A DNA stretch of 64,000 nt from an uncultured Patescibacteria group bacterium (GTDB lineage: Bacteria; Patescibacteriota; Microgenomatia; UBA1400; PJMF01). The stretch spans positions 11,523-75,522 of the forward strand of contig CAJQIG010000004.1 of assembly GCA_905478415.1 (NCBI GenBank). Direction: 5' to 3'. Numbering within the stretch: the first letter of the stretch is position 1; each line of letters begins with the position of its first letter. Made by a program: the position numbers and the translations under genes. This document shows positions 5,015-46,174 of the stretch, one piece after another. The notes below the pieces were generated by a model that saw nothing but the letters and a program-made list of their open reading frames with translations, ran no database searches and had not been told where the DNA came from.

Positions 5015-5091
5015 ATCTTATATTTTTCCGTTATTGTTACTGTCGGAAACTAGTATTTTACTACAAATCTCCACTTTTTACTTGACCAATT

Positions 5092-5589: not shown

Positions 5590-5622
5590 ACTAATTGTTT
5601 TTCTACTTTCTCTTCTAATGCT

Positions 5623-5907: not shown

Positions 5908-5963
5908 ATTTTTTTCTTGTTGATTCTATCGATATCGATATATTTTAACAATCCTTTTTACTT

Positions 5964-6797: not shown

Positions 6798-6810
6798 TTC
6801 TCTTCAATCC

Positions 6811-7116: not shown

Positions 7117-7119
7117 ATC

Positions 7120-7836
7120 TTACTCACTCTTCTTTGCTGTCTTAGTTTTCTTAGGAGCAGATTTTTTTGTAGTTGTAGCGGCTTTCTTAACTGGAGCCTT
7201 TACTGCTACTTCTTCTGCAGGTAATAATCGAGCTTCTAGAACCTTTACAGCTCCTGAAGTCATAATTACTTTGTTGACTCCGGCAATGTGATAGGCATTA
7301 ATGAGATCAGCAGTGAGCGTTGAAATATTTTGAATATTAGAGAGTGCTCGTTCCACTTTTTCGTTTCGAGCTTCTAGAACAACTAATACTTTTCTAGAGG
7401 TTGTTAAGACTGACTCTAAAAGAGTAACTGCTTCTTTTGTTTTTCCAGAAAGATCGTGTAATCCGTCAACAATTATAGTGTTTTCTGCTTGTGCACTTAA
7501 TGCTGAAAGGAGTGCCTTTGCTTTCATCTTACGAGAAAGGTTGCGACTCCAGTTTTCAAGTCCGGTTGGACCATGAGCAACACCACCACCTACAAAAATT
7601 GGAGCACTTTTAGCACCGTGACGAGCATTACCCGTACCTTTTTGCTTATACACTTTTCTCTTAGTTAGATTGACTTCTGATCTACCTTTAACTTTACTTG
7701 TTCCTTGACGTTTGTTAGACATGTAGACACGAATTGCCTGAGCCAAAAGAACATCATTAACTTTTGCACTAAACAGACCATCGTGAGCTGTCACAGAACC
7801 AGTTTTCCCAGTAGAAGTTATGCTTGCTAATTTCAT
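7120..7836 (-). CDS. rplD: 50S ribosomal protein L4 with K/A/T-rich C-terminal tail
   Basis: 238 aa; L4 core plus tail ...VKAPVKKAATTTKKSAPKKTKTAKKSE. Confidence 0.9.
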   Translation of the reverse strand: MKLASITSTGKTGSVTAHDGLFSAKVNDVLLAQAIRVYMSNKRQGTSKVKGRSEVNLTKRKVYKQKGTGNARHGAKSAPIFVGGGVAHGPTGLENWSRNLSRKMKAKALLSALSAQAENTIIVDGLHDLSGKTKEAVTLLESVLTTSRKVLVVLEARNEKVERALSNIQNISTLTADLINAYHIAGVNKVIMTSGAVKVLEARLLPAEEVAVKAPVKKAATTTKKSAPKKTKTAKKSE

Positions 7837-22667: not shown

Positions 22668-23243
22668 TTAGCTATCATCCCGATTAAAAATTGCTTCAAA
22701 TTGTTCTTCAACAATAGAGTATTTATCCTCAGTGAAAACAATACAGTGGATATCTTTAATTTTGGTTTCCATATTGGCTGGATCAAAAAAATAGCCACCT
22801 AAACTTCGAGCCATAATAGTAGCTGCCTCTTCAATCGGATATCCATGAATTCCAGTAGCTATGACTGGAAAGGTGATGCTCTCAAGATTATACTGATCAG
22901 CCATCCAAAGACAGTTTTTATAGCAAGCTGCAAGTAGTTCTGCCTCAGCTCCATTTTCTTGCCCATAGATTGGACCAACCGTGTGAATAATATAAGGAAC
23001 TTCCAAATCAAAACCTTCAGTTATAATGACTTGAGAAGGCTCCATACTGCCATATTGACTACAGGCTGCTTTCATACCCGGACCAGCAGCCCTGGTAATG
23101 GCTTTATCAACACCTCCTGCCATCTCGAAATTCCGAGTGGTGGTATTGACAATAGCATTTGTTTTCTCTTGCGTAATATCACCTTGTAGTAAAGTGACTG
23201 TCGGTTGGGTTTTTGATTTCTTCCAGTACTCTTTCTTTAGCAT
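22668..23243 (-). CDS. Macro-domain protein (MacroD/YmdB-like ADP-ribose-binding or O-acetyl-ADP-ribose deacetylase-type)
   Basis: 191 aa; NAIVNTTT...GGVDKAITRAAGP, ITEGFDL..YIIHTVGP, ATGIHGYP motifs. Confidence 0.85.
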   Translation of the reverse strand: MLKKEYWKKSKTQPTVTLLQGDITQEKTNAIVNTTTRNFEMAGGVDKAITRAAGPGMKAACSQYGSMEPSQVIITEGFDLEVPYIIHTVGPIYGQENGAEAELLAACYKNCLWMADQYNLESITFPVIATGIHGYPIEEAATIMARSLGGYFFDPANMETKIKDIHCIVFTEDKYSIVEEQFEAIFNRDDS

Positions 23244-23285
23244 TAGACACAGTATGCCACACTCAGATCTTCTTTGCCAAGTGGC

Positions 23286-24833
23286 TTATGTAATATCTTT
23301 CAGAATACGAAATTCTGAGAGATCTTTTGCTAAAAATGTTTCTTCAGTAGAGGTCGTATAACTAGTCCCAACAAGCTCTCCTGTTTCAGTAGTAAAAGAA
23401 GTTGGATCAAATACATGACGGAACTTATCTTTATCTAAAAAGGTAACCAGCGCTTCACCAGCTTGTGCTTGCTTCACTAAAGCGGCAATTGCTGCAAGCA
23501 TCTGAGTATCATCTACCTCTGCATCAGACATATATTTAAAGGTAGATAAAAAAGTTTGCACTGTTGAGTCTGCCAAAACAAAGGAAGCTTTGAATGGAGT
23601 GGTCAATACTATACCTTCGAGTGAGCGAGCGCGTGATAAAGCTACATAGGCTTGCCCATGTGCAAAGGTGCCTCTATCAAAATCGATAATCACATTATCA
23701 AATGTCTTACCTTGACTTTTATGAATGGTAATTGCCCAAGCAAGAGTCAGTGGATACTGTTTAAAAGACCCGGTCACTTCTGTTTGGAGGGTATCTTTTG
23801 CTGGATTGTACTCAACCTTGAACATCTCCCAGGTGTATGGCTCAACTTCAACCCCAGTGCCATCATCAAGGTCAACTAACAAGATATCATCATCTCCAGC
23901 TGTGCCAGCTTTCACACCTACAACTTTACCTAAGCTCCCGTTTACCCATCTGCCTTCACGGTCATTAGCAACCATCATAATCTGGGCACCAACCTTAATT
24001 TCTAACTCTTCGGCAGTCGGTAACATCCGTGTATCAAATTTTCCAGAAGCGTTGCCAGTATACTTAAATCGCTCGTTAAACAAACGATTTAAATGAAAAT
24101 CATTAATCATTTGAGCTTTTTTATTTGTGGTGGTTAAATGAATAAAAAAACGATTACTTGGAGTTTCAAACTGTGGATCAAATCGAGCATTCAAGCGCTC
24201 AACATGCTGCTCATCTAAAGCATTATTCCGGATAGCCTGCAGAATGGTAATAAACGTATCATCTTCCTGTCGGTAAATTTTTTCTAACTCTACAAATTCG
24301 AAATCAAGATCTTCAAACACCCTAGAAGAGAAAAAGTAAGGACTAGCGTACACAGTCGAGAAAATACTTTGTTCCTCACGCCGCACCACAGGTGGCAACT
24401 GCAATAAATCACCGATAAAAACCATCCGAATACCTCCAAAAGGCTGGTTACCATCGGGGCCGTGGAGTCTGAGCATAGCATCAATACAATCGAGCATATC
24501 TGCTCGCACCATAGAAATCTCGTCAATAATGATCATTTCTAATTTTTTAAATAATCCCTTTTTATTTTTATTTCGATAAAAACGCTTAATTTTTTCTACC
24601 GTAATATCTGGTCGAAACCCAAAGAACGAGTGAATTGTCTGACCCTTAACATTCAAAGCAGCGACCCCAGTTGGAGCTAAAATAGCAATCTTTTTCTTGG
24701 TTTCTTGACGGAAAATATCGAGGATTGTTGATTTACCAGTGCCAGCGTTACCCGTTAAGAACATATGACCTGAACCGTTTTCAAGTCTCTCGAGCACTTT
24801 TTGGAGAGGCACATCTAGTTGAGAACTTTTCAT
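23286..24833 (-). CDS. PIF1/RecD-family SF1B DNA helicase
   Basis: 515 aa; Walker A GNAGTGKST, Walker B IIIDEISMV, PIF1-family signature GDLLQLPPV. Confidence 0.85.
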   Translation of the reverse strand: MKSSQLDVPLQKVLERLENGSGHMFLTGNAGTGKSTILDIFRQETKKKIAILAPTGVAALNVKGQTIHSFFGFRPDITVEKIKRFYRNKNKKGLFKKLEMIIIDEISMVRADMLDCIDAMLRLHGPDGNQPFGGIRMVFIGDLLQLPPVVRREEQSIFSTVYASPYFFSSRVFEDLDFEFVELEKIYRQEDDTFITILQAIRNNALDEQHVERLNARFDPQFETPSNRFFIHLTTTNKKAQMINDFHLNRLFNERFKYTGNASGKFDTRMLPTAEELEIKVGAQIMMVANDREGRWVNGSLGKVVGVKAGTAGDDDILLVDLDDGTGVEVEPYTWEMFKVEYNPAKDTLQTEVTGSFKQYPLTLAWAITIHKSQGKTFDNVIIDFDRGTFAHGQAYVALSRARSLEGIVLTTPFKASFVLADSTVQTFLSTFKYMSDAEVDDTQMLAAIAALVKQAQAGEALVTFLDKDKFRHVFDPTSFTTETGELVGTSYTTSTEETFLAKDLSEFRILKDIT

Positions 24834-25262: not shown

Positions 25263-26219
25263 CTATTGAATCAGCTGAGCAGTAATCACCCCACGCCTAA
25301 GGTAGGTGCCTTCTGGAGTACAGGTCACCAACTTGAGTTGTCGAGAATCATACTGTTGCGTCAAAATGTACACATCCTCTGGCTGTACCTCAGTTATTTC
25401 TTGCACTACATAGCGATACTGCACACCATCAAAAGTAACCAAAATTTCCTCACCCTTTTTCATGGTCATAATAGTACTAAAAATCGAGTTATATCTACGA
25501 GGATTCTTTTCACTGGGATTATAAAACTGTCGAAGCACCGAGTGACCAAAAATAACTGGAGCTCCCGGATTTCCAGGTAAAGCAGTTCCCTGATAGGCAA
25601 TCAATGACTTATTCAGGTCAGTTCCACCAATAGCTACCTTAGCGTTGGTAATATCTAAACTAGGAATATCAATAGTATATTCTTTTGGAATGTTGGATCC
25701 CTGAGACTGATTTCCTGCTAATTCGGGTAACGTAGCAGAAGTAAACCAGTTATTTAAGTTAGTGTAATCAAGCTCCTCGTCAATAATAATAGGATCTCTA
25801 TCTTCGAGGGAGTCACTGGTCCCCGCCACTACACCAGTTGTGTCAATAACTAATGGAGTCACGTCCATAACTTCCTCTCTAGGAATCGGAGCAAGGAGTG
25901 TTGCTGTCTGTAAAGACGGTGATGTTGAAACGTAGTACGTTAAAATTGGAAATACTGCGCTGCCAACTAAATAGATTCCCAAACTCAGAAAGCTGACTGG
26001 AACAATAAAAGCCCCCATTCTGACAACTTTGGGAATGCGACGTTTGACCTTTTCTTCCCGCTTCTTCTCAAACTCAGTTTCAACGCGTTGACTGACATCT
26101 ATTCTATCAACTTGGTTCTTAATCTTGTCCTCAAGTTCATCCAAAGAAACGCCCCGAAGTAATGCCTTTCGATACAGTGCAACTAGATCAGACTGAAGGG
26201 CAGATGGGGTATTACTCAT
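25263..26219 (-). CDS. Sortase-family transpeptidase (membrane-anchored)
   Basis: ~318 aa from MSNTPSAL; N-terminal TM helix, active-site His (VIFGHS), Cys in LVTCTP (TLxTC), downstream Arg (RRGVIT); start overlaps stop of upstream gene (ATGAGTAA). Confidence 0.8.
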   Translation of the reverse strand: MSNTPSALQSDLVALYRKALLRGVSLDELEDKIKNQVDRIDVSQRVETEFEKKREEKVKRRIPKVVRMGAFIVPVSFLSLGIYLVGSAVFPILTYYVSTSPSLQTATLLAPIPREEVMDVTPLVIDTTGVVAGTSDSLEDRDPIIIDEELDYTNLNNWFTSATLPELAGNQSQGSNIPKEYTIDIPSLDITNAKVAIGGTDLNKSLIAYQGTALPGNPGAPVIFGHSVLRQFYNPSEKNPRRYNSIFSTIMTMKKGEEILVTFDGVQYRYVVQEITEVQPEDVYILTQQYDSRQLKLVTCTPEGTYLRRGVITAQLIQ

Positions 26220-28527
26220 CCTGAACCACCAAAATTTCAACTCTTTCTTTATCAGCCGGCACTTTAGAAACAAAACTTGGGTTAAATACAACAGTCGCTG
26301 ACTTAATTCCTTCGTAATCTTCTAAGTTTCTCATCGCATCAGAACTACTCTTGCCAAGTACGTATTGGAACAAACTCTCTGTATCAACCACCGGAATTGC
26401 TTCTGAAGACAAATTTGCCAAGATGAGCGTGCCACTAGCACTTGCATCAGTATCACCATTTAATGGCTGAGAAAGAATTGAAGGAGCTTCTTCAGAAAGC
26501 ACATACCCTTCGGGAACTTCAGAAGCTAAAATACGGGTTGCTAGAGGCTGTAAGCTAGCAGCTGTATATGTCAAAGCTTCGACCGTCAACTTGAGTGAGG
26601 CGGTTACTTCATTGGTTTCATCATCAACATCGGAGCTAAAGGTAACTGTTTTTTCAACGGTTTCGAGCTTCGGAAGAATATACTCACCGCTTGCCACTTC
26701 GTCCTCAAGTTCTTGGAGAGCCTGCGTCTCCAACTCAGCTTGTAGCTCCTTGAGAGCTTCTGTCTGATCACTGGCTGACACAACTCTTACTTCTCTACTA
26801 GAGCCACCGGTCAAGTCATCTTCGACAATAACTTCATACGTACTCGTATCGAATGACTCGACAGTCATTTCAGTCTCTTTAGCAAGATTTCCATCGGCAC
26901 CAATATCTGTTGCTGTTACCTGAGCGTCAATTTTTCCATACTTTTTTTCTTCTCCAGAGCTTGTCTCTTTGACTGTTGCAGCAGGGACCGTCACAGCTTC
27001 ATCAAAAGTAAAATCTCTGTCGCCAGCGGAAATAACTGTGCCGGCAGCAAACTCTTTCTCAGCAGTTGTTTTGTTGTAAACCATGACTGTACCTTTTGAA
27101 GTTTCACCCACAACTTTAACTCCTGTAGTCAAAATAGTGTTCTCACCAGAGACAGTTTTTTGAATTTTTTGAGCTGCCAGTACTAAATCTTCCACATTAC
27201 TTTCACTAATTTTGGCACTGACTGAAATTTCAGCTTCTTTGGTCACTGGTTTCGTTGCCAACACAATGCCAATTTTGGCCGTAGAAGTAAACATAAATGC
27301 CCAAGCTGCTACAGCTGTAAGCACGAGCAATCCCAATCCAACTCCAAGACCAATAAAAAGACGAGTATTTTTATGATGACGTTGAAAAAATGATTTTTTT
27401 GATTTATGACGTTCTGGATTAAATGTCTGAGCATCACTTGTTTGAGCAACTGGAGTCGCATCCACAACATCTTTTGTCTTTTCTAAAGATGTTTCTGGTG
27501 TGTGAACTTCTGAAGGAATTGGAATTCCAAAAGAAGTCGGAGTATCAATCGCATATTCTGGTTCTGTTGCTGAGGTTGGTGATGCTTCTTGTTTGGTGAC
27601 TTCGGTAAAACCCAACTCTTCAGCTGAAACTGGGCGAAGATTATCCGTTTGATCTGCAACCATAGGAACCTGATCTTTCAATGGGATTGCCACTTTACTC
27701 TTTGCGACAGCCAATCCCTTAGCATCTGCAACCGCCACACCGGCTTCGGTGACTATGCGAGAAATGTAATCTGACTCTGACAACACCGTCACCGTTGGAG
27801 GTTGTAGAAATTTGATCTTATCTTCAAGTGTAGCACTGAGCAATCGTTGCTGAACCTGTGTAACTACACTTGACTCTTCCTCAATGGAGGTAACAATAAT
27901 TTGTGGTGGTAAATATCCTGCTTTGTCATCACCTGCCTGTGAAAAACGAGCCATTCCTTCAATACAGTCATCAACCACACTTTGAGAGCGTCCAACCACT
28001 TCAATTCCAGAAATAGATGCATGCTCCACTACTACTACTGTTACTGTTTTAGCAGCTATTAAAATAAAAATTCCTGAAAAACGAGCATGCTCCCTGACCG
28101 CATAGTTCACAATAGACTCAGTAGTCTCAACAAAACCTATGGGAGAGAGATCTAACTCATCAGTCATCTTCTTGAGCATTGGCTTCTTTTCAGGACTGAT
28201 ATCGCCAGCAGTAATCCAAGTGTTATCTAAGACAAAAATGACGTCATTGATTGTTTCTGACTCTTTACCAAGTTCTTGCAAGGCTGCATCAGCAACTTCA
28301 ACCGCATTTTTAACTCCAGAATAGTGGGTTGTTTTTGAGGTGCGAAGTAACTCGACACCCCCAGCATGTAATCGCAGTAAAAGGGCTTTAATGATAGTAT
28401 CAGAAATCCAAATACCCAAGACTAACATCTCTGGGGCAGTAGATGAATCCGATTCTGCATGTGTATGAGGTACAAGTGATATCAACGGCATATATGTATT
28501 CTTTTCTCCACAGAAAAACTCCAACAC
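26212..28527 (-). CDS. Bitopic membrane protein: N-terminal degenerate actin/ASKHA-like (FtsA/PilM-like) cytoplasmic domain, single TM, ~365-aa extracytoplasmic domain; function unknown
   Basis: 771 aa (alternative start at 28491, MPLISL); LVLGIWISDTIIKALLL resembles the GxDIGxxxIK phosphate-1 motif; basic stretch KSKKSFFQRHHKNTR then TM helix LFIGLGVGLGLLVLTAVAAWAFMF; acidic T/E/V-rich C-terminal region. Confidence 0.55.
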   Translation of the reverse strand: MLEFFCGEKNTYMPLISLVPHTHAESDSSTAPEMLVLGIWISDTIIKALLLRLHAGGVELLRTSKTTHYSGVKNAVEVADAALQELGKESETINDVIFVLDNTWITAGDISPEKKPMLKKMTDELDLSPIGFVETTESIVNYAVREHARFSGIFILIAAKTVTVVVVEHASISGIEVVGRSQSVVDDCIEGMARFSQAGDDKAGYLPPQIIVTSIEEESSVVTQVQQRLLSATLEDKIKFLQPPTVTVLSESDYISRIVTEAGVAVADAKGLAVAKSKVAIPLKDQVPMVADQTDNLRPVSAEELGFTEVTKQEASPTSATEPEYAIDTPTSFGIPIPSEVHTPETSLEKTKDVVDATPVAQTSDAQTFNPERHKSKKSFFQRHHKNTRLFIGLGVGLGLLVLTAVAAWAFMFTSTAKIGIVLATKPVTKEAEISVSAKISESNVEDLVLAAQKIQKTVSGENTILTTGVKVVGETSKGTVMVYNKTTAEKEFAAGTVISAGDRDFTFDEAVTVPAATVKETSSGEEKKYGKIDAQVTATDIGADGNLAKETEMTVESFDTSTYEVIVEDDLTGGSSREVRVVSASDQTEALKELQAELETQALQELEDEVASGEYILPKLETVEKTVTFSSDVDDETNEVTASLKLTVEALTYTAASLQPLATRILASEVPEGYVLSEEAPSILSQPLNGDTDASASGTLILANLSSEAIPVVDTESLFQYVLGKSSSDAMRNLEDYEGIKSATVVFNPSFVSKVPADKERVEILVVQDE

Positions 28528-28757: not shown

Positions 28758-29999
28758 GTGTCCTCAGTTGCGAATTATAAAGTATTTCGAGTGGCTATGG
28801 TCATTATTTTGGCTTTAGCGGCACTCACCGCAACACTCCCTGTAAATCAAGTTTTTGCTGATACAGTCACCTGTCAAGATGGATATTACGGTTGGTTCTG
28901 GTCTGATGGCAGTGGTCACTGCACCAGCCTTGGTGCTACCAAAGAGACTAATATCCAGCCTCAGGTAGTGACAACCCCAAATCCAAACGCAGGAAATACC
29001 TATGTAGCTCCTACGGTCTCAAGTTCAAGCTCAACAGTGACTGCAGGCCCTAGCCAAGGCGCATTCGCCTTAGCATCTGCTTGTAATATCACACTTGCTG
29101 AATTTAAGTCGTATAATGGATTGAGTGGACCAAACCCAATCATTGGAGTGGGAACTACATATACATGTAGCCCCTTTGGGGCCCCCCAACAACAATATAA
29201 TACCTATAATCTGCCAACTGCAGAAGGAAGATCTGTTGCTGGAGGAACTGGCTTCACTGTCACAAATGAAGCATCGTGGTCTGACGCCGCCTACAAGTGC
29301 GCAGATGCACGAACAAGTGGTAGTGACATGCAATCACTCAATTATTCATCAGTTGGCTATTTAAATAATGGAGATTTTGTTGTCTGCCCTCTGTTTAACG
29401 ATGCCAGCGATGGATATGTATATGCACCAACTGCTACTGTGATTCCAACAGGCACCCAACAATCATTTTGGGTAGAGCAAATTCAAAAGAATGTAGTGCT
29501 GAGGACTTTAATCCCCATTACTGGTGGATCAGCACTTGCCTTCAGTTATGCTGCCACAGCCGATGTGGCTGCTGTCTTAACAGTTGATGGCATTGTTGTG
29601 GGGTACTTAGCAATAGCTACTCCAGTAACAGGATTTGTAATCTGGCAACTTGCCAGTGCCCGTAGCGCAATCAACATGGACTATGTGATTGCGCAAGCAA
29701 ATGCACAGGCTCAACCACAAGTTGTGCCAACATCTGTTCCTGATACGTTGCAACCACCCATGCCAAACCCCAATGACCCTTGTGGAGCCGCCGAGATCTT
29801 ACTGTCCATTCACTTAGGACAAATGATACCTCTAGGCGGTGGCAACCAGGTTCTATCGGTAATTGGCCGGGCTGACCAAACTATCAGCAATGTTGACCTA
29901 AGTCAGATCCTCCATGTCTTGGAATCATGTGGCTGGGGCGTCAGAAAAATGGATGATCTGCCGAATGGCCAAACAAGGTGGAACGTTTGGCGCAACTAG
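28758..29999 (+). CDS. Secreted or membrane Cys-rich protein of unknown function with GTG start, signal peptide and possible LysM-like segment
   Basis: 413 aa; RBS AAAGGAGAG 8 nt before GTG; signal peptide ...ALAALTATLPVNQVFA/DTV; 8 Cys; CNITLAEFKSYNGLSGPNPIIGVGTTYTC resembles a LysM core; central hydrophobic region. Confidence 0.55.
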   Translation: MSSVANYKVFRVAMVIILALAALTATLPVNQVFADTVTCQDGYYGWFWSDGSGHCTSLGATKETNIQPQVVTTPNPNAGNTYVAPTVSSSSSTVTAGPSQGAFALASACNITLAEFKSYNGLSGPNPIIGVGTTYTCSPFGAPQQQYNTYNLPTAEGRSVAGGTGFTVTNEASWSDAAYKCADARTSGSDMQSLNYSSVGYLNNGDFVVCPLFNDASDGYVYAPTATVIPTGTQQSFWVEQIQKNVVLRTLIPITGGSALAFSYAATADVAAVLTVDGIVVGYLAIATPVTGFVIWQLASARSAINMDYVIAQANAQAQPQVVPTSVPDTLQPPMPNPNDPCGAAEILLSIHLGQMIPLGGGNQVLSVIGRADQTISNVDLSQILHVLESCGWGVRKMDDLPNGQTRWNVWRN

Positions 30000-30081: not shown

Positions 30082-30116
30082 AAAGCCACCTGCACTAAAA
30101 CAGGTGGCTTTTTTTA
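30082..30116. terminator. Bidirectional intrinsic terminator between convergent genes (28758 gene and alaS)
   Basis: AAAGCCACCTG-cactaaaa-CAGGTGGCTTT followed by TTTTTTT on plus; A-tract on the other side. Confidence 0.75.
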
Positions 30117-36786: not shown

Positions 36787-37452
36787 TCATTTCACTTTTA
36801 TAGAATTTTGTTTTAATACTTTTTCAAAGTTTGATCGTACATCTCTTGTAACCGGAATCTCGCTCCAAACCTTATTGTAACCATCAAATTTACCCTTAAA
36901 TTGTGTATTCAGAGCAAACAGTACATGCCCCATCATCTGGGCAACTACTTGATATAATGCATCAGCACTCCACCTGTCCCCAGTAAATCTTTGATCATCA
37001 AAAACTAAACTCCAATCAAGTGATGCAGCATTTACATGAGAATAAGAATAAGTTAGCTTAACACAAAAATCATAATAATCACGATTTTTAAACCCAATCT
37101 CTTCCATTTTTTTATCTAATCTAACTTGGGTCCAAGAGACCCCAAATCCCTTCTCTCCTAGGTCATCCATATAGTTCTTTAATCTTTCGTCTGAATTACT
37201 GTGCGCTATCCAACGCATATTAAATGAGTGTTCAATCAAGCTGCGTAAAATAATGATTGACTCATCTGTCAAACCAGCTTCACAAAGTACAGTAATTGAA
37301 TCAAGAAGGTTAATAGCTTTATGAGCTGCAGCAATAAAGTAACGATCTAATATAGTGGGATTCTCAATAGAATTTCCCATTAAATCAAAGCCTTGAATTA
37401 TTTCTTTTTTTGCTTTAATAATAAGTGCTTTAGAGGATATTTTACTTGCCAT
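36787..37452 (-). CDS. Hypothetical protein, AT-rich compositional outlier (possible HEPN-like Rx4H motif)
   Basis: 221 aa; markedly lower GC than neighbours; LRSLIEHSF contains Rx4H; no other recognised motif; its start overlaps the stop of the upstream DUF368 gene by 11 nt. Confidence 0.45.
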   Translation of the reverse strand: MASKISSKALIIKAKKEIIQGFDLMGNSIENPTILDRYFIAAAHKAINLLDSITVLCEAGLTDESIIILRSLIEHSFNMRWIAHSNSDERLKNYMDDLGEKGFGVSWTQVRLDKKMEEIGFKNRDYYDFCVKLTYSYSHVNAASLDWSLVFDDQRFTGDRWSADALYQVVAQMMGHVLFALNTQFKGKFDGYNKVWSEIPVTRDVRSNFEKVLKQNSIKVK

Positions 37453-38410
37453 TACCTGAATTTACTTCTTTCCCAGCCCCACCCCTCTCAATCATCATCA
37501 CAACCACAAATGCGACCACAAACAAGCCAACAGCCATCATCACGCTACCATCAAAGGTACGAGGAACAATGTTCCGCTGCACCACCGGCACTAAATCACC
37601 ATGTCGATCCATCACGGACTCCAACGTTTCCTTCCAAGGCCAAATCTTTCTGAGAGATCCAACCATGAAACCGGTCAGAACTGAAATAATAATGTTCTCA
37701 TGATGCTCAAAGAGCCATGATAACAGGCGTGAAAAGAGAGCCAGTCCAACAACAGCTCCAACCATAAAAATACCCAGAGTCACAATGTCTTTGTCGTGGA
37801 CCGCTGCTAAAATTTGTTCGTATTTACCCAAGATAATCAGCAAGAATGAACCCGAAACTCCAGGGAGGATCATGGCGCAAATGGCAATCGCACCACTGAG
37901 TAAAAACGCCAGTGGCGTTGCAGCTGTCTCAGTTGGTACCGCTCCAACAATTAAGTAGGCAGCGATGGCAGCAACTACAGCCGCACCGATTTCTCTAGAA
38001 GACCAAACCGTTACTCGTTTGCTGACTACCTTAATAGATGCCACAACTAAGCCAAAGAAAAAGGACCATAAATAAACTGGATACGTATCAAGCATGTACG
38101 TTAACACAGACGAAAGCAACACTACAGCACCTAAAAGCCCCGTTGCCAATGGCACTAAGAATGAAAAGGGAATAATCTTGAAAGCTTCGGCAATCTTGCC
38201 TTTTAAAACTAGTTTGAGAGCTTCGCCACTGACCAGTTTAATACTCTCGATGAGTTGTTCGTAAATGCCAAAGATAAAGGCCATAGTTCCACCGGAAACT
38301 CCGGGAACAATATCAGAGGCTCCCATCACAAATCCAATACCAAGGTACTTGGCCATCTGAGCCAGGGGAGATTTCTGAGTACTTACTTTTGTAGGGGTAG
38401 TTTTTTTCAT
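37442..38410 (-). CDS. DUF368 family polytopic membrane protein (putative polyprenyl-phosphate transporter family)
   Basis: 322 aa; duplicated VPGVSGG / LPGVSGS motifs typical of DUF368. Confidence 0.7.
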   Translation of the reverse strand: MKKTTPTKVSTQKSPLAQMAKYLGIGFVMGASDIVPGVSGGTMAFIFGIYEQLIESIKLVSGEALKLVLKGKIAEAFKIIPFSFLVPLATGLLGAVVLLSSVLTYMLDTYPVYLWSFFFGLVVASIKVVSKRVTVWSSREIGAAVVAAIAAYLIVGAVPTETAATPLAFLLSGAIAICAMILPGVSGSFLLIILGKYEQILAAVHDKDIVTLGIFMVGAVVGLALFSRLLSWLFEHHENIIISVLTGFMVGSLRKIWPWKETLESVMDRHGDLVPVVQRNIVPRTFDGSVMMAVGLFVVAFVVVMMIERGGAGKEVNSGNGK

Positions 38411-38474: not shown

Positions 38475-39257
38475 CTATTTCTTTTTGGAGAGAGTTTGGC
38501 CCATTACGTTGCCAAACCCTTCGATAGCTCGAAGAATTTCCATTGGCAGTGCAAAAATGACTGTGTTTGATTGATCCGAAGAAATATCGTTAATTGAGTT
38601 GAGCGTACGCAGGTGCAAAGCTCCAGGGCTCTTGGACATCATATTCGCAGCTTCAGTTAAGTTCTGTGCAGCCAAGACTTCACCCTGACTATTAATAATA
38701 GTGGCCCGTTTTTCACGCTCTGCTTCAGCCTGTTTAGCCATGGTTCGAACCATACTCTCTGGCAACTCAATATCCTTGAGCTCAACAGCTTCGACATCGA
38801 TACCCCACTGATCAGTGGTGGCATCAACACTGGCTAAAATTTCTTTGGCAATCTTTTCTCTGCTTGAGAGTAGTTCATCCAAAGTAGCTTCACCAGCTAC
38901 ACGACGCATAGTTGTCTGAGCTAATTGAGAAACTGCCCAAAATACGTTTTCGACTTCGTTTATAGCTTTGTTGGCATCAGTAACTTTGTAATAGATAACG
39001 GCATTCATTTTGCACGAAACGTTATCTCGAGTAATAGTCTCTTGTTTTGGCACATCAACCGCTTTGGTACGAATATCAATTTTTACAAAGGTTTGGAAAA
39101 TAGGAAGAATAAATCGCCAACCAGGACCAACTACACCTTGGAATCGTCCCATGGTGTAGACCACGCCACGTTCGTACTGATTGATTTGTTTGAGAGACGC
39201 AAGAAATAAAATAAGGGCAAAGGGAAGAAATCCAAGAAGTGGCATAGTACCTTTCAA
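38475..39257 (-). CDS. SPFH/Band-7 (stomatin/prohibitin-like) membrane protein
   Basis: 260 aa; N-terminal TM helix then SPFH domain (…YERGVVYTMGRFQGVVGPGWRFILP…). Confidence 0.8.
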   Translation of the reverse strand: MKGTMPLLGFLPFALILFLASLKQINQYERGVVYTMGRFQGVVGPGWRFILPIFQTFVKIDIRTKAVDVPKQETITRDNVSCKMNAVIYYKVTDANKAINEVENVFWAVSQLAQTTMRRVAGEATLDELLSSREKIAKEILASVDATTDQWGIDVEAVELKDIELPESMVRTMAKQAEAEREKRATIINSQGEVLAAQNLTEAANMMSKSPGALHLRTLNSINDISSDQSNTVIFALPMEILRAIEGFGNVMGQTLSKKK

Positions 39258-39298: not shown

Positions 39299-40072
39299 CT
39301 ACTTTTGGGTTTTTTGCGTATCGGGTGCATAACTCACCGCTCCATCCGGCAACCGTCGCACCCAATCTCCAGAGCGCTGCTCTTCAACAATGTGCGCAAT
39401 ACTTCCTGCCACTCGAGCCACACCAAATAAGGCATTCCCCGCTAATGGGTCAATCTTCATGGCCATAAGTAATGCTGCTAAAGCCCCATCTATATTAATC
39501 ACCAGTGGTTTCAACAACTCTGCTTCTAATACACTAGCAATCTGCTTAGCGATATTTATGTAGTGAATATCGAGTCCTGCATTTCGAGCTAAAATAAATA
39601 ATTGTTCGGTTCGAGGATCCTTTTTTGTATAGACTGGGTGTCCAAACCCTGGAATACGTTTTTTGTCTGCACGGTAGGTTTTAACCAACCATGTTGCCCC
39701 AGCTTCTGTATCTTCTGAGTACTCATCGACTGCCTTCAACACTTCCATTGCTCCCGTAATGGCTCCACCATGATAAGGACCAAGTGCTAACAAAGATGAG
39801 GCCATACACGTTAACACATCATTTCCAGAAGAGGCTACTACTCGAGGTACAAAACCACTAGCCGGATCAATACCATGGTCAATGGCTCCAACTAGAAGTG
39901 CATTGAGCACTTTTTCTTCGGCTGCTGTTGGCTTTTTGCCGGTTACAGACAAAAAGAGAGTAGAAACAAAGTTTGCTTCGCCAATGAGGGTGGTGAGCGG
40001 AATACCGCGTAATTCGAGGTCGTGCTGACCGTGGCCGCTAACACTGGTTTTGAAATCTAATTTTTGTGACAT
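39299..40072 (-). CDS. Citrate-synthase-family short protein, citryl-CoA lyase (Ccl)-like
   Basis: 257 aa; citrate synthase signature GFGHPVYTKKDPR; lacks the N-terminal half of full-length citrate synthase. Confidence 0.65.
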   Translation of the reverse strand: MSQKLDFKTSVSGHGQHDLELRGIPLTTLIGEANFVSTLFLSVTGKKPTAAEEKVLNALLVGAIDHGIDPASGFVPRVVASSGNDVLTCMASSLLALGPYHGGAITGAMEVLKAVDEYSEDTEAGATWLVKTYRADKKRIPGFGHPVYTKKDPRTEQLFILARNAGLDIHYINIAKQIASVLEAELLKPLVINIDGALAALLMAMKIDPLAGNALFGVARVAGSIAHIVEEQRSGDWVRRLPDGAVSYAPDTQKTQK

Positions 40073-40076
40073 ATAC

Positions 40077-40985
40077 CTATAGTTGTACTACTTTTTTAAG
40101 CTGTTTGACAATCTCTTCTGGATTCTGAGCAAGATGAACTCCTACCGCTGACAATGCATCAATCTTACTTTTTCGAGTTCCAAATTGAGCATCAACAATT
40201 GCGCCTGCATGTCCAAAAGCTATTCCTTTTGGCAATGTCTCGGCAAAAATGCCTGATATGTAAGCAATAACTGGTTTCGTAAAGTGTCGTGATTTAAGAG
40301 CTGTTGCCAAATCTTCTTCGGCACTGCCCCCAATTTCTCCAATAATTACTAAAGCTTTTGTCTGAACGTCTGCTTCTAATTCTGGAAGGACATCAGCAAA
40401 AGTAGTTCCAATGACTCTGTCTCCTCCAATTCCAGCTACGATTGTTTGTGGAATTTGAGCAGCTGTCAGTAAGGACGCTACGGTATTTGCCATCCCACCA
40501 CTTTTTGAAATGAGGGCCACACCTGGGCTATTAGCTTTAGGAAATAAGAAGTTCTCAAACACACCACCACCTAATGACCCAAGCGCGGTCCCCGTCGTTA
40601 CAACCCCAACTGAGCTTGGTCCCAACATTCGAGCATTTTTTTGTTTAACTAACTCTAACAAATCGACACTATCTCGTGTAGGAACTTGTTCGGCAATAAT
40701 ATGGATAAGGGAAATACCAGCTTTTACAGCTTCGGTAGCAGCTACTTTCACAAACTTGGGTGGCACATAGATACTACTGACAGTAGTATCCGGGTGAGCT
40801 TGCAGTGCCTCTGCAACTGAGTCATAGACAGGAACTCCTTCCACAACTTCACCTCCATGTCCTGGAGAGACTCCAGCAAGAACTTGAGCTCCTCCGAGCT
40901 GCATCCATGTAGCAGCACGTCGCCCCTCTTTCCCCGTAATTCCTTGAATCAAGTACTTAGTCTGGATAGAAAGTGAAAACAGCAT
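40077..40985 (-). CDS. Succinyl-CoA synthetase alpha-like subunit (CcsB / ACL small-subunit N-domain-like)
   Basis: 302 aa; CoA-binding GITGKEG, phosphohistidine loop AFGHAGAIVD. Confidence 0.8.
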   Translation of the reverse strand: MLFSLSIQTKYLIQGITGKEGRRAATWMQLGGAQVLAGVSPGHGGEVVEGVPVYDSVAEALQAHPDTTVSSIYVPPKFVKVAATEAVKAGISLIHIIAEQVPTRDSVDLLELVKQKNARMLGPSSVGVVTTGTALGSLGGGVFENFLFPKANSPGVALISKSGGMANTVASLLTAAQIPQTIVAGIGGDRVIGTTFADVLPELEADVQTKALVIIGEIGGSAEEDLATALKSRHFTKPVIAYISGIFAETLPKGIAFGHAGAIVDAQFGTRKSKIDALSAVGVHLAQNPEEIVKQLKKVVQL

Positions 40986-40986
40986 G

Positions 40987-42198
40987 TTATACCCTCTCCT
41001 TTTGAGAGTGCTGTCGCTTTACCAATGCCGTTTTGAGGGCAGGGATAGTATCAAGAATCGGCACTGTTGGACCAAGCAACGTCACTGCAAATCGAGTAGG
41101 GTCGAGCCTGGTTCTCACCATCTCAAAAGCTTCTTCCCACCGTGGTCCTCCACGACGAATAATCACTGGGAACTGCTGTTCCCAATTAGAAGCAAGTAAT
41201 CCATCAACAACACCCGAGAGCGTCTCAAAAATATCCGTAAAACTAGCATTACTGCCCACTACATAGAGGGCTTCAAGTGTTTGGATTGAAAGGACAAGCT
41301 CTGTGAGTTCCCGAACTTTGTCTCTGCTCGGGTTACCCGAATACTCAGTATAGTTTGCTGGCTGTAGTCCGTGTTCCAATAATCCATCCATTGCTAAAGC
41401 CGATGCCCCGCCACCTGAAGCCAATACACCAATGGTCCCACCAGGAAACTCAAAAAAACTTTCTCCTGCTACGCCCCGTTCATCCTGTCTACTTATAGCT
41501 AGTGCTGCTTGCTCTAAGGGGGTGCGTCTCTTTTCACCAGCAGCCCGTACTAAGCGAGATGCATTCCATTCTGGATGCCTAAAGCGGGCAGCATCTTCTA
41601 ACTCAATTTTGGCATCAAGACAAACATACCCAGAAGAAGTAACTCCTACGGGATTAATTTCAAGCAAGAGCGCATCATTTTCAATGAATGCTTGCCATAT
41701 TTTTTTAACTAATGGTAAAAATTTTGGATTCGCCTCGAATACTGTCGGCCCAGTCACTACTGAAAGCGGTATCTCTTGCAGAGTCGAGCCTCGCTCGTCC
41801 ATGCCCGCACCACCTTCTGATGAATACCTACAAATGAGCGAGCGCAAACTGGTGTCATAGCCAAGGCTTATGTACACTTGACTCTCAAACTCACACTTCT
41901 CTTCAATTAAAAGTTCATCTATTGGGTTCCCGTAGGCGTCTGACTTTGCGAAAAGTTGGGCTGCCTTTTCACTCAACTCTTCTGCAGAATCTGCAAACAA
42001 TATCAAACCAGAGAGACCTCGATTGCCATGTAAAACCTGGGCTTTAAGTACTACTGGGTACGAAAAGGGGACTGCCATGCTCGTAGAAAGATCCTCTTTT
42101 GTGAGTAGCACTCCGGCAGGAGTCAATAACGTGTAAGTTTGAAGTATTTTTTTGGCCTCAAATTCGGTCAATAACATAGTCACTATAGTAACATACAA
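40987..42198 (-). CDS. Succinyl-CoA synthetase beta-like ATP-grasp subunit (CcsA / AclA-like); probable real start ATG at 42177
   Basis: 403 aa (ORF begins at TTG); MLLTEFEAKKILQTY and VVLKAQVLHGNRG resemble the SucC N-terminus and ATP-grasp. Confidence 0.75.
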   Translation of the reverse strand: MYVTIVTMLLTEFEAKKILQTYTLLTPAGVLLTKEDLSTSMAVPFSYPVVLKAQVLHGNRGLSGLILFADSAEELSEKAAQLFAKSDAYGNPIDELLIEEKCEFESQVYISLGYDTSLRSLICRYSSEGGAGMDERGSTLQEIPLSVVTGPTVFEANPKFLPLVKKIWQAFIENDALLLEINPVGVTSSGYVCLDAKIELEDAARFRHPEWNASRLVRAAGEKRRTPLEQAALAISRQDERGVAGESFFEFPGGTIGVLASGGGASALAMDGLLEHGLQPANYTEYSGNPSRDKVRELTELVLSIQTLEALYVVGSNASFTDIFETLSGVVDGLLASNWEQQFPVIIRRGGPRWEEAFEMVRTRLDPTRFAVTLLGPTVPILDTIPALKTALVKRQHSQKERV

Positions 42199-42799: not shown

Positions 42800-44788
42800 C
42801 TACCTCTGAGCAACTAAACTAAGCCATGGAGAAACTGATTTTAGATCTCCAAGTTCCTGTAATCCAACATAGAGCATTAATGCATCATGCAACTCTTTTG
42901 ACTGGGCGGTGTCAGCTGCTCCAAATGCCATATACTCACTCGACTCAGACCCAGGCATAAGAATAACTGAAGCTCCAGGTTTTCCACCAGGGCTCATATT
43001 ACCTTTACCCATTGCGTCAAAGTCACTCCACCAGCCTGGAGCTATGAAAATTGGCGCATCTGTTTCTTGGTTTGAAGTGTCAAACTGTGATGAGAACCCT
43101 GAGCCGCGAGAGTGCCCTCCTGCCATAATGCCTGGTTTATAAAGCTCTTGTTGGTACTGTCTAAAGTGACCAAATGATGGCTTCTCACTTGACATATTAT
43201 TACCTAATTTATCGAGTAATAATGCTGTATAGGTTGGTCTATGAAGCATATTTCCAGCTGCACCAAGTGAAATGGCTAAAACCGATTTGTTATGAACAGT
43301 TGGCACCGAAAGACGTTTAGAAAGTTCATGCACCGGATCGAGACCATAACTTGATAATCGATCACCCGAACCAATATCACGTTGCCAAGCAGCCTGCTTT
43401 AGACTTGAGTCTTTCATAAGTAGGAGTAGCTGTTCTTCATAGGGAAGGTGAGCAGCTACAACGTTTTCTAAAACTGAATCTCTGCTACGAGAGCGAGCCG
43501 TTTGTTTATCAACCATGTTTCTCAATATCGCTAAGAAGACGTGAGGATTATCTTTAAGGGTATCTGCTAAGTACCGTTTATATCGTTCGACACCTGCATC
43601 CTTTGATCCAAAACGAACATTCTGTCCAAACTCAACTCTAATTGGCAGTTTTGATTCGATGTCATACCAAACAACATCGCGCAGTGATCCCTCATCAGGT
43701 AAAAATGTTTCTTCTTCTTCAGATATTGTGGGGGATAGTTCTCGTGCAAAACGAACGGTTGGTTTATCCTCAACCTCACTCTGGATCCGTTCTCGAATTT
43801 CATCCGTCATTTGCTGAGATTCTAAGCTGTTGAGCACTTCCATAGCTGTATGGATTACGGCCCCATGCTTATCAGTCATGGTTGGATAGCGAAGTACTCG
43901 ACCATCACTAGCAGAAAAAATTTCTATACTTTGACCACCCTTATCAGCCAGTGGCAATCCTAATTTTTTACCAAATGGATCTTGTGGCAAGTCACCATTA
44001 ACACTTTTAAATGTTCCATTCTGCACTAACACTAATGAAGGATCATCTGATATCACACCCACATGTTTTCTCACCTTTGCTAAGACCGAATCAGGTTGAT
44101 TCTCATTAACAATTCCAGCTCTATGAATATGGGCACTAAATACCGTACCTTCTCTTGTCCCAGCGTCTTGTGCTTGTTGAACCTTTCGCCCAGCATGATT
44201 TGGATCATACTGACTCTTACCTCTGGCACTATGGAATACCTGTACTGGAACAACTTTCCCTGACGCAAACTCAACGTTAATATGCCCACCTTGAGTTACC
44301 AGATTAACATCTAAATCTCGAATAATTTCTTTCCAAGGATCTGCAGTCGATGCATCTTGCACCCAACCATTATGTCCCCAGTAGTCAGTTACCATCCCCA
44401 TCACCCTACCTGCATCTACGAGTGGCTTGAGAACCATGGTTCTGAATAACTCCATTTGTTGCGTGGCTGTACCAACAGTAGAGACAGCGTTTGTCGAAAG
44501 GTACCCTTTTTTTCGCCCCTCAATTTCATCTCCAGTCATGACTACATACACGTCAGGTGTTGACAAAATATATGCTACCAGCTCTTTTACGAGTGTTTGA
44601 TCGGTATTCAGTGATCCAAGGTGTAAATCACCGAGCGAAAATACTTGAATTGGTCTATCATGTTCAATAGCAAAAGAGACACTTGTTGGTGTCTCCGTCT
44701 CCATTATAGCCTCCTGCATAAGGCTGATGGCTGCACTAAGTTTTTCTGCATGCACTTGCTCTCTTCTGTCCCGCTCTTGATGATTCAT
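42800..44788 (-). CDS. Calcineurin-like metallophosphoesterase with ~400-aa C-terminal region of unknown function
   Basis: 662 aa; N-terminal MPP motifs SLGDLHLG (GDxHG) and MTGDEIEG (GDxxD/E); remainder unrecognised. Confidence 0.65.
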   Translation of the reverse strand: MNHQERDRREQVHAEKLSAAISLMQEAIMETETPTSVSFAIEHDRPIQVFSLGDLHLGSLNTDQTLVKELVAYILSTPDVYVVMTGDEIEGRKKGYLSTNAVSTVGTATQQMELFRTMVLKPLVDAGRVMGMVTDYWGHNGWVQDASTADPWKEIIRDLDVNLVTQGGHINVEFASGKVVPVQVFHSARGKSQYDPNHAGRKVQQAQDAGTREGTVFSAHIHRAGIVNENQPDSVLAKVRKHVGVISDDPSLVLVQNGTFKSVNGDLPQDPFGKKLGLPLADKGGQSIEIFSASDGRVLRYPTMTDKHGAVIHTAMEVLNSLESQQMTDEIRERIQSEVEDKPTVRFARELSPTISEEEETFLPDEGSLRDVVWYDIESKLPIRVEFGQNVRFGSKDAGVERYKRYLADTLKDNPHVFLAILRNMVDKQTARSRSRDSVLENVVAAHLPYEEQLLLLMKDSSLKQAAWQRDIGSGDRLSSYGLDPVHELSKRLSVPTVHNKSVLAISLGAAGNMLHRPTYTALLLDKLGNNMSSEKPSFGHFRQYQQELYKPGIMAGGHSRGSGFSSQFDTSNQETDAPIFIAPGWWSDFDAMGKGNMSPGGKPGASVILMPGSESSEYMAFGAADTAQSKELHDALMLYVGLQELGDLKSVSPWLSLVAQR

Positions 44789-44917: not shown

Positions 44918-46174
44918 TTAGAACCAAAGGTCCAAGAAAAGGAAGGCTACAATGCCGGCAACAACGGACATACTCATTCCCCATGCCAGCAACCAATTAA
45001 ATAGTCTTTTTTGCTGAGCTTTATCTTCGACTGCTGCTAGTGAAAGCGCCCCCAGTGTCGAAAGTGGACTCACATCCACCATATGAGAACCAACGGCTAC
45101 GGCAATGACCATAGGTATAATCTCGCTAATTCCCATCTTAGTAGCAAGACCCGGTACCAACGGTACAAATGCCGGTAATACTACTCCAGAAGAAGAACTG
45201 TATGCCGAAACGGCTCCACTCACAAAAGCCAACACTGCATTAATAAAATCTGGACTGGTTACAGTAGCGATAAAGGTTGTAGCCAAGTCTAGACCACCAG
45301 TTTTTTCCATTAAATTGATCAAGACTGCAATCCCCGTCACCATTTGAATAGTTGACCAAGGTACTGTCTCAATCACTTCTTCTTCTTCAGCAAGACCTAA
45401 GAAGAACATGCCCACCGCTGTTGATACAGCCATAATCACCAGCGGAACTTCCGCAATAATCACACCAGAAATCAAAAGCATAATCGCAATAAGTGAGATC
45501 TTTTGTTTCTTTTTCAACACTGGTTTCTTGGCTTTAATAGTTACGACTTTAGGCTTGTATCTTCTCTTTCTACTTCTAAATAAGAACAGACCATAAGCAA
45601 GTAAAGCTGAAAGTGACTGCAGTACAGCCGAAGCTCCAAAAACAATCCAGATTAATTGTGTATCAAGTTGAATCTGGTGTAGTAATCCCAAGGCCACGAC
45701 ACCTGTTGGAGAAAAAGGAGAAAAAGCACCAGCGTTCGCTCCAGTACATAACATAATCGCAATAATAAGCGGAGAAATCCCATGTTTTTTAGCTAAGTTC
45801 ATCGTCATTGGTGCAAGGAGTGCTACTGCCGCAATATTACCTGGACCGAGAGCCGAAAGTAAAAAGGACAACGCAAATACTAATAGGGGTAGTAACAATG
45901 CTTTTCCTCGAATCAAATTAATAGCATAGTGAGTCACAACATCGAGCGTGCCATTTTTTTGAGCAATGCCAAAAACCATACTCATACTCACCAGTAGAAT
46001 AAATAACTGAGCAGGAAATCCTGCTAAAATTGTGTTTGTTGAAAAATCAGCAAGATACACTCCAATTCCAAGGGCGGCAGCTAATGCTAACAAGCCGGGA
46101 TTAAGCTTTGGTAAAAAGCAACTTAGAATAACTATTACAAGTAACGCAGAAAGCGAAACAATAGCGGTGAACAT
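44918..46174 (-). CDS. Ion-transporter-superfamily permease (ArsB/NhaD/DASS/CitMHS-like), two-repeat topology
   Basis: 418 aa; ~12 TM helices in two halves split by a basic loop RSRKRRYKPK...; hairpin-like GANAGAFSPFSPTG and GSHMVDVSPLSTLG motifs. Confidence 0.5.
   Translation of the reverse strand: MFTAIVSLSALLVIVILSCFLPKLNPGLLALAAALGIGVYLADFSTNTILAGFPAQLFILLVSMSMVFGIAQKNGTLDVVTHYAINLIRGKALLLPLLVFALSFLLSALGPGNIAAVALLAPMTMNLAKKHGISPLIIAIMLCTGANAGAFSPFSPTGVVALGLLHQIQLDTQLIWIVFGASAVLQSLSALLAYGLFLFRSRKRRYKPKVVTIKAKKPVLKKKQKISLIAIMLLISGVIIAEVPLVIMAVSTAVGMFFLGLAEEEEVIETVPWSTIQMVTGIAVLINLMEKTGGLDLATTFIATVTSPDFINAVLAFVSGAVSAYSSSSGVVLPAFVPLVPGLATKMGISEIIPMVIAVAVGSHMVDVSPLSTLGALSLAAVEDKAQQKRLFNWLLAWGMSMSVVAGIVAFLFLDLWF

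Follow-up and report, generated by a model that had tools for sequence, protein, structure and literature searches.

A large membrane protein of Microgenomates-type CPR bacteria combines an FtsA-like actin fold, predicted to lie in the cytoplasm, with a Baseplate-J-like domain predicted to lie outside, and its gene is paired with a sortase gene far beyond chance. The window analyzed here, a stretch of 64,000 nucleotides from an uncultured Patescibacteria bacterium, contains one such pair on its minus strand, in which the sortase is translationally coupled to the large gene. We tentatively propose, as a reading with a reasonable prospect of being right, that the pair constitutes a conserved two-gene envelope module in which the large protein is a scaffold that holds or gates the coupled sortase.

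Two overlapping genes had been recognized on the minus strand in the initial annotation, and both open reading frames are present where it had placed them (Table 1). The large gene ends with a TAA codon at 26212-26214, and the sortase ATG at 26217-26219 overlaps this end by 8 nt (ATGAGTAA). The junction reads ...CAG GAT GAG TAA in the frame of the large gene and ATG AGT AAT in the other frame. The large protein had been described as 771 aa long, and an ORF of this size does exist from a GTG codon at 28527. However, the starts of all homologues coincide with the ATG at 28491 (MPL or MDL; here MPLISL...), which makes the GTG start less likely, and a length of 759 aa is therefore the most likely one.

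Table 1. Features of the large gene and the coupled sortase gene, with positions in the window and the basis of each assignment
Feature	Residues	Position	Strand	Basis
Large bitopic membrane protein, 759 aa (most likely length)		26212..28491	minus	ORF list, homologue starts
Cytoplasmic minimal ASKHA (actin-fold) domain, predicted	~20-260	27712..28434	minus	predicted structure
Acidic, poorly conserved cytoplasmic linker	~261-375	27367..27711	minus	alignment, composition, charge
ELGF motif in linker (weaker)	292-295	27607-27618	minus	
Linear motif PTSFGIPI	318-325	27517..27540	minus	alignment of 30 sequences
Single TM helix, predicted	~378-401	27289..27360	minus	hydropathy, flanking charge, modelled as helix
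Extracytoplasmic domain of Baseplate J / phage wedge (gp47-type) architecture	~402-759	26215..27288	minus	
Beta-barrel core of ectodomain	~437-572	26776-27183	minus	
Sortase, 318 aa		25263..26219	minus	ORF list, Pfam PF04203
Cytoplasmic N-terminal extension of sortase	1-66	26022..26219	minus	alignment of 66 orthologues
TM helix of sortase, predicted	~67-95	25935-26021	minus	charge-based topology
Extracytoplasmic sortase catalytic domain	183-316	25272..25673	minus	Pfam match, conservation

Structure prediction bore out the suspected actin/ASKHA fold of the N-terminal domain, with FtsA and PilM as the closest folds. In the model, two beta-beta-beta-alpha-beta-alpha-beta-alpha (RNase-H-like) subdomains form an interdomain cleft. 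The 1C (SHS2) subdomain of FtsA is absent, with no insertion between beta3 and alpha1 or after beta4, and 2B is reduced. An hhalign comparison with an intact FtsA-like protein from another locus, L086 (probability 95.6%), set LIAAKTVT against DVGGGTTD at phosphate-2 and TS-- against CGGGS at the adenosine motif, and left about 90 residues of that relative unmatched in the window protein. The second nucleotide-binding motif is thus degraded, as had been noted before, and the adenosine motif is degenerate too. A phosphate-1 region of the FtsA/PilM type had also been suggested; its columns, assigned by eye (LGIWISDT against LDVGTEF), are not conserved in the family. Indeed, none of the ASKHA nucleotide-binding motifs (phosphate-1 DxG, phosphate-2 DxGGGTT, adenosine GG) is conserved among the 30 family members, whose alignment is variable in these columns and contains no invariant Asp or Gly there. 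The large protein is probably a non-enzymatic scaffold. FtsA HMMs (TIGR01174, PF14450, SHS2_FTSA) gave no match at E<=1 to the window protein or its 30 relatives, and the PilM_2 and GspL HMMs did not match the window protein. A C-terminal amphipathic helix of the FtsA type is also absent, and the N-domain instead runs on into the linker and TM helix. No second FtsA-like gene was found in the window by tblastn with an FtsA-like query, and a general Pfam scan, as distinct from a dedicated search, showed no ftsZ among the window ORFs.

The linker terminates in the basic patch KSKKSFFQRHHKNTR. Across the 30 aligned sequences, F321 and G322 of the PTSFGIPI motif are invariant and S320 is near-invariant, and distant members carry FGF motifs in the corresponding region. 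A net charge of +6 before and +2 after the TM helix predicts an N-in/C-out orientation. All parts of the order described initially, a basic patch followed by one TM helix and an acidic ectodomain rich in Thr, Val and Glu, were recovered, with an ectodomain of ~355 aa. This domain has the Baseplate J / gp47 fold over ~350 aligned columns, and its barrel shows detectable sequence similarity to Baseplate J / wedge proteins, with Pfam, PHROG and structure matches. The window protein itself obtained no family assignment from Pfam, NCBIfam or PHROGs and did not match PF04865 at E<=1; twelve of the 30 relatives do match this model (best E 8.1e-6), and three of ten relatives scanned one by one pass its gathering score of 21.1 bits. 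The ectodomain is orthologous to that of protein P0218 (hhalign probability 99.8%, E 2.6e-30). It contains a VGEKAKG motif with invariant or near-invariant Lys and Gly. A profile search of PDB sequences gave nothing but a TM match to VAMP2, which was dismissed as spurious.

The second gene encodes a membrane-anchored sortase that falls outside the established classes; its catalytic domain, like the ectodomain of the large protein, is predicted to lie outside the cell. It matches PF04203 (E 1.8e-19), and the catalytic residues are His226, Cys300 and Arg308/309 by our own count. The catalytic contexts named initially, GHS, TCTP and RR(G), fall in columns that are at least 95% conserved among 66 orthologues. 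None of the NCBIfam models for sortase classes A-F reaches its cut-off; the best of them, class C, gives 41.6 bits where 160 are required, and the only model whose cut-off the protein passes is the generic TIGR01076. Among solved structures, SrtA 3rcc is the nearest (E 8e-7). A conserved LDYTNLxNWF segment (residues ~150-159) precedes the catalytic domain. The cytoplasmic extension (~65 aa) carries a conserved LxxLYRxALxxGVxLxxLExK pattern and a charge of +5 inside; it occurs in most of the clade and is missing in the deepest-branching relatives. Because it is absent from these pairs, there is no universal single cytoplasmic interface, and docking of the extension on the actin fold was downgraded. 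Sortases are near-ubiquitous in Microgenomates (PMC6744442).

The lack of a nearby LPXTG-type substrate, pointed out initially for the surroundings of the pair, extends further: strict and loose scans found no C-terminal sorting signal of this type in the ORFs of the window (64 kb) or of related loci amounting to ~0.97 Mb, and yielded only polytopic transporters. The ORF at 37442-38410, with its hydrophobic C-terminal tail, was considered as a substrate and rejected as a VCA0040-like polytopic translocase. The partner protein had likewise been said to lack a sorting signal, and this is true of its C-terminus (...ERVEILVVQDE) and of every family member.

The two genes are consistently found together. 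Among GTDB species-representative loci of Microgenomates that extend past the large gene, the sortase lies directly downstream in 78/78, and the order alaS, large gene, sortase, ruvX, mltG is kept in all of them. The most divergent homologues (20-28% identity) also have an adjoining sortase, and within the Microgenomates orthologues of the large protein are always accompanied by one, down to the deepest relatives. Stop and start codons overlap or lie no more than 20 nt apart in 62 of 72 loci, and synteny is kept even where the large gene has been divided into two parts. A word search found 30 homologues of the large protein; a profile search found 11,671 cluster representatives at E<=1e-3, 3,494 of them at E<=1e-30. 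Neighbouring genes encode RodZ-like HTH_25, YtxH, MltG and FtsK proteins, and the neighbourhoods inspected contain no tail, baseplate, secretion or pilus genes. A scan for promoters and terminators was no more informative than shuffled controls, except for one strong hairpin 3' of alaS. The co-operonic genes alaS, ruvX and mltG have no obvious common role, and a place in one operon is in itself no proof that genes act together.

Word-indexed profile searches with alignments of the N- and C-terminal domains returned few proteins, many of them apparently partial, and gave the unfused relatives of the large protein. In a second (sister) clade and on one contig of 71.5% GC, a separate FtsA-like gene occupies the slot of the large gene in the operon. 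It is followed by a gene for a TM/Baseplate-J protein, ruvX and mltG (~80 loci). Both complete unfused FtsA-like copies that were read have intact ATP motifs. The one at L086 matches TIGR01174 with E 2e-32, a score below the cut-off, and PF14450 with 4e-13, and the FtsA-like partner of this clade terminates in an amphipathic helix. As the unfused pair sits in the same operon slot, the window protein is a fusion of an FtsA-like protein and its TM/Baseplate-J partner that has lost the ATPase motifs and has a sortase alongside. No sortase was found near the pair in the ~80 second-clade loci. These loci, with homologous genes between alaS and ruvX-mltG, contradict the initial suggestion of an intrinsic sortase module, and they show that the core function of the scaffold does not need a sortase. 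The accompanying idea of a scaffold that positions the sortase could therefore hold only for an addition made in this lineage to a module for the envelope or division that is older.

Under the module hypothesis, the first gene would encode an FtsA-family protein fused to its operon partner, which is itself bitopic and carries a Baseplate-J-like domain outside the cell. After the fusion, the actin fold would have retained only its 1A/2A core, with the ATP-binding motifs lost, and the flexible acidic linker with its conserved FG motif would tie it to the TM helix and outer domain. The scaffold may assemble with the wall-growth or division machinery; its gene lies in the alaS-ruvX-mltG operon, with rodZ-like and ftsK genes close by. 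Co-produced with the sortase, it would hold or gate the enzyme where new wall and secreted substrates emerge, through contacts in the membrane or outside rather than through the actin fold. The anatomy, folds, homologies, motif loss, predicted topology, gene coupling and synteny are observed, whereas oligomerization, localization and the functional link to the sortase are inferred. In a broader version, which we regard as unlikely though worth stating, the FtsA-like protein and the bitopic protein with the Baseplate-J-like domain would form a system, not described before, that spans the envelope and is encoded alongside ruvX and mltG; its inheritance would be vertical in CPR and possibly in some other Terrabacteria of high GC content. 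The Microgenomates would have fused the two, turned the actin fold into a pseudo-ATPase and recruited a dedicated sortase. Covalent attachment of surface proteins or wall would then be organized by an outer assembly that resembles a phage wedge and is linked to the division apparatus in the cytoplasm, and such a machine might even replace a canonical FtsA tether.

The same sister-clade loci also suit a different explanation, in which the large protein is an FtsA-derived tether for division or wall growth that works independently of the sortase, itself a housekeeping gene co-expressed from a constitutive operon. Both scaffold genes occur there in the same slot with no sortase, the FtsA-like partner has TIGR01174 similarity and a terminal amphipathic helix, and alaS and ruvX are examples of unrelated housekeeping genes in the operon. 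We consider this a serious possibility, somewhat doubtful in view of the sortase adjacency, which is invariant across 28-59% sequence divergence, with stop/start overlaps in many lineages, and survives even the splitting of the large gene; the coupling is tighter than operon hitch-hiking usually gives. If the ectodomain were instead the catalytic partner of the sortase, either as a Lys acceptor or as a substrate cross-linked to the wall, it would form a covalent trans-envelope anchor. The outward position of both domains, the conserved Lys and Gly of VGEKAKG and the lack of any other substrate encoded nearby are consistent with this. We nevertheless think it improbable: the protein has neither a C-terminal sorting signal nor an LPXTG-like motif with a membrane anchor, and the VGEKA(K/T)G motif is not sortase-specific, being kept in the sortase-less clade also.

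An alignment protein of the PilM-PilN/PilO or GspL type, serving a T4P/T2S-like machine with the sortase as a chance neighbour, is less probable still. A PilM-PilN/O-like scaffold had been offered in the initial annotation, and it is disfavoured by the failure of the PilM_2 and GspL models to match, by the absence of pilN, pilO or gsp neighbours and by the different outer domain. The Baseplate-J-like region matches phage baseplate wedge proteins in Pfam, PHROG and structure comparisons and might be left over from a prophage or contractile injection system, with no cellular role for the pair. Against this stand the vertical conservation of the gene, always in one housekeeping position, across 78 species-level genomes and thousands of clusters, the presence of an FtsA-like domain and a TM helix in the same protein, and the lack of any other tail gene nearby; a true phage-context Baseplate_J protein (P0225) differs strongly in context. 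The synteny effectively refutes this reading, to which we give almost no credence.

The CPR/Patescibacteria account for much of bacterial diversity, yet very little is known of how they divide and build their envelope. Literature searches on CPR/Patescibacteria sortases, baseplate J and FtsA-like proteins turned up no account of the pair. The family comprises thousands of sequence clusters in a fixed housekeeping position and has no curated model of its own, with only borderline Baseplate_J matches from Pfam and NCBIfam. It newly connects an FtsA-family fold, a sortase and a phage wedge fold outside the cell membrane. Should the functional link prove true, sortases could be positioned in a way not seen before, by a trans-envelope protein of a new FtsA-associated class, and a baseplate fold would have a place in core cell biology. 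The unfused pair would offer an experimental route if the second clade includes cultivable relatives.

Compared with FtsA (TIGR01174 / PF14450), the window protein lacks the 1C (SHS2) subdomain, has a reduced 2B and does not conserve the phosphate-1, phosphate-2 and adenosine motifs. FtsA anchors by a C-terminal amphipathic helix, whereas the window protein does so by covalent fusion to a TM protein; no ftsZ was seen beside its gene in the general Pfam scan, and no FtsA HMM matches it. GspL and PilM-PilN similarly link an actin-like cytoplasmic domain across the membrane to an outer domain. That domain is small and ferredoxin-like in GspL and PilM-PilN/PilO, in contrast to the ~355-aa Baseplate J fold here, and the window locus has neither secretion or pilus genes nor a match to the HMMs of these families. 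With Baseplate J / gp47 proteins (PF04865), the ectodomain shares the fold over ~350 columns and detectable sequence similarity in the barrel, but it is anchored in the cell membrane, outside the cytoplasm, fused to an FtsA-like domain and encoded in a housekeeping operon. The sortase shares the His, Cys and Arg contexts of sortases A-F, yet it reaches no class cut-off and, like most of its clade, carries a conserved cytoplasmic extension of ~65 aa. A genetically linked membrane partner of a sortase has precedent in accessory factors such as SafA of Actinomyces; a two-sided partner of 759 aa is unlike any of those described.

The large gene and the sortase gene 3' of it meet at the junction CAG GAT GAG TAA, which reads ATG AGT AAT in the other frame, so that the ATGAGTAA overlap of stop and start described in the initial annotation was confirmed. 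A 771-aa ORF is present, as that annotation had stated, and starts from a GTG, but a length of 759 aa is more likely, because the homologues without exception begin where the ATG at 28491 lies (MPLISL...). Hydropathy analysis revealed one strong segment per protein, taken as membrane-spanning; weaker hydrophobic stretches of the large protein (residues 21-41 and 136-160) are located in beta-strands of the actin-fold model. Net charges across the TM are +6/+2 for the large protein and +5/0 for the sortase, and the C-terminal domains of both are therefore predicted to face outwards, in agreement with the single TM and extracytoplasmic domain proposed earlier for the large protein. The window has a GC content of ~41%, and the genomes nearest to it are of Pacebacteria/Woesebacteria type, within the Microgenomates group.

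Coordinates of the gene pair and of other features in the window
Feature	Position	Strand	Remarks
Large gene ORF	26212-28527	minus	771 aa from a GTG
Sortase gene	in-frame ATG at 26219, end 25263	minus	318 aa
PIF1-family helicase + Macro-domain protein	22668-24833	minus	between ruvX and mltG
413-aa ORF	28758-29999	plus	N-terminal signal or TM segment, weak LysM match
Hairpin	30082-30111		strong, bidirectional terminator-like; 3' of 413-aa ORF and alaS
VCA0040-like (DUF368) undecaprenyl-phosphate translocase + SPFH/Band 7 protein	37442-38410, 38475-39257	minus	
ATP-citrate-lyase-like genes	39299-42198 and 44918-46174	minus	three adjacent ORFs jointly carry domains
662-aa ORF	42800-44788	minus	between citrate-lyase-like genes and transporter

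The N-terminal domain of the large protein matched no Pfam or NCBIfam model. A confident AlphaFold2 model of residues 1-268 (20-sequence alignment; pLDDT 86, pTM 0.81) contains the beta-beta-beta-alpha-beta-alpha-beta-alpha unit of the ASKHA/actin core twice, which bears out the suggested actin fold; ~210 residues are alignable, and the domain is modelled as a minimal 1A+2A core. None of the residues invariant in the family (W92, L113, L115, G119, F120, P195, Q215, F228 and P232) is nucleotide-binding. A variable acidic segment joins this domain to the ectodomain and carries the motif PTSFGIPI (residues 318-325), with F-G invariant in the family alignment, and a weaker second motif, ELGF; distant members show FGF motifs in the same region.

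Residues 378-759 were also modelled confidently (pLDDT 87.7). High rmsd values reflect differing domain orientations. With Foldseek against viral models, Baseplate J proteins aligned over ~350 columns with probability 1.0. Pfam Baseplate_J was matched by 12 of 30 family members (best 8.1e-6, profile positions 20-113), its gathering score was passed by three of the ten scanned individually, and one member matched PHROG 6, 'baseplate wedge subunit', at 2.5e-8. The outer part thus has a Baseplate J fold rather than the PilN/O-like one initially suggested, since no PilN, PilO or GspL structure was among the 60 best matches.

The sortase matched PF04203 (1.8e-19) and reached none of the NCBIfam class A-F cut-offs; the nearest solved structure was a class A enzyme (E 8e-7). 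The catalytic contexts noted initially held up, with VIFGHSV, LVTCTP and YLRRG kept across 66 orthologues, as are an LDYTNLxNWF segment upstream of the catalytic domain and the cytoplasmic motif LxxLYRxALxxGVxLxxLExK. The cytoplasmic extension is not universal, because in the deepest-branching pairs the sortase is short and bears a basic tail alone. No C-terminal sorting signal was found in any window ORF or in ~0.97 Mb of related loci, extending the earlier remark that LPXTG-type substrates are absent nearby; the targets must presumably be encoded elsewhere in the genome.

Searching 1.84 billion representatives with the large-protein profile returned 11,671 proteins at E<=1e-3, of which 3,494 reached E<=1e-30. 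In the 80 species-level genome loci retained from the scan, the genes run alaS – large gene – sortase – ruvX – mltG; the sortase directly follows the large gene in all 78 that extend far enough, the other two terminating just past the large gene. The co-occurrence set as a test in the initial annotation was therefore observed throughout these loci. Adjacency persists in homologues at 20-28% identity and even where two genes stand in place of the large one. Of 72 loci, 25 have a stop that overlaps the start, and a spacing of 1-20 nt was seen in a further 37. A RodZ-like HTH_25 protein and YtxH typically lie upstream, with FtsK and rpoB near the pair. In the P0181 lineage (a JGI contig), genes for 376 aa (actin fold and linker) and 374 aa (TM and ectodomain) precede the sortase, which may reflect a genuine split or a frameshift in the assembly. 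The full set of genes also occurs, at 30% identity, in CP011212.1, a complete genome of 853 kb that bears the label 'candidate division TM6'; this may be a mislabelling, or members of the family may occur beyond Microgenomates.

Outside this envelope-gene neighbourhood, window ORFs scanned with Pfam were metabolic, transport or translation genes. None of 85 related loci has an equivalent of the 413-aa ORF, which is inserted divergently between the large gene and alaS. Among loci whose gene lists were inspected, the helicase/Macro insert was confined to the closest relative (L001/L002); in the others, ruvX and mltG either nearly adjoin or have different genes between them. The translocase adjoining the SPFH/Band 7 gene adds envelope-related genes ~10 kb from the pair. 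The citrate-lyase-like ORFs carry ATP-grasp_2 and Citrate_bind, CoA_binding and Ligase_CoA, and a citrate synthase C-domain, and are located near a citrate or dicarboxylate transporter of the CitMHS/MatC type; such a set is uncommon in a small CPR genome. The 662-aa ORF had no Pfam match at E<=0.001.

An ectodomain-only search retrieved shorter proteins (about 500-610 aa) without the actin fold. Two of their loci, L086 and L089, read alaS – FtsA-like gene (420-424 aa) – TM/Baseplate-J gene – ruvX – mltG; the genes overlap or abut, and neither locus has a sortase. A metagenome scan added 80 unfused loci (GC 37-57%, contigs up to 845 kb), with the same order in all that were long enough and a sortase in none. 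A soil contig at 71.5% GC shares the arrangement, which may therefore extend beyond CPR. Within this second clade (L086, at 4737-7680, L089 and L091-L170), the FtsA-like gene is 74-90% identical versus 41-63% for its partner, which carries a small cytoplasmic N-terminal domain of its own (MNKDVIYIDVDDD...), conserved but without a Pfam match.

The FtsA-like protein retains LDVGTE, DVGGGTTD and CGGGS, ends in an amphipathic helix and matches TIGR01174 ftsA at 2e-32, under the cut-off. By hhalign it aligned with the N-domain family of the window (prob 95.6%, E 1e-8), DVGGGTTD facing LIAAKTVT and the adenosine-motif GGG facing a gap, as the proposed motif degeneracy implied. Orthology of the fused and unfused ectodomains is clear (prob 99.8%, E 2.6e-30). 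Given these links and the unfused operon, the window protein is a fusion of an FtsA-family protein and its operon partner, in which the 1C subdomain, the membrane-targeting helix and the ATP-binding motifs were lost. At the site of 'DVG', fused members on deep branches have 'EVG', consistent with gradual decay.

An anatomy of a two-sided, non-enzymatic scaffold made together with an outward-facing sortase is well supported. FtsA ancestry and the operon suggest that the scaffold is an envelope or division-associated protein. It might further position or control the sortase, since their adjacency in Microgenomates is invariant and often translationally coupled. A strong alternative is that the scaffold functions independently and the sortase is merely co-expressed: the sister clade has the scaffold genes without a sortase, which shows the basic role of the scaffold to be independent of it. 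That the large protein is an acceptor or substrate of the sortase, serves a pilus or secretion, or is a prophage remnant is in each case disfavoured, being countered by specific tests.

Sortases have been described as a near-ubiquitous family in Microgenomates (PMC6744442) and noted in one genome (PMC7143001); CPR papers that mention them note their presence and nothing more. The partner protein is not described in the literature searched, and neither are its FtsA ancestry and Baseplate J ectodomain. The component fold families are known, and it is their combination and conserved housekeeping context that are new. FtsA and PilM carry a 1C insertion, whereas the model of the window N-domain leaves no space for one.
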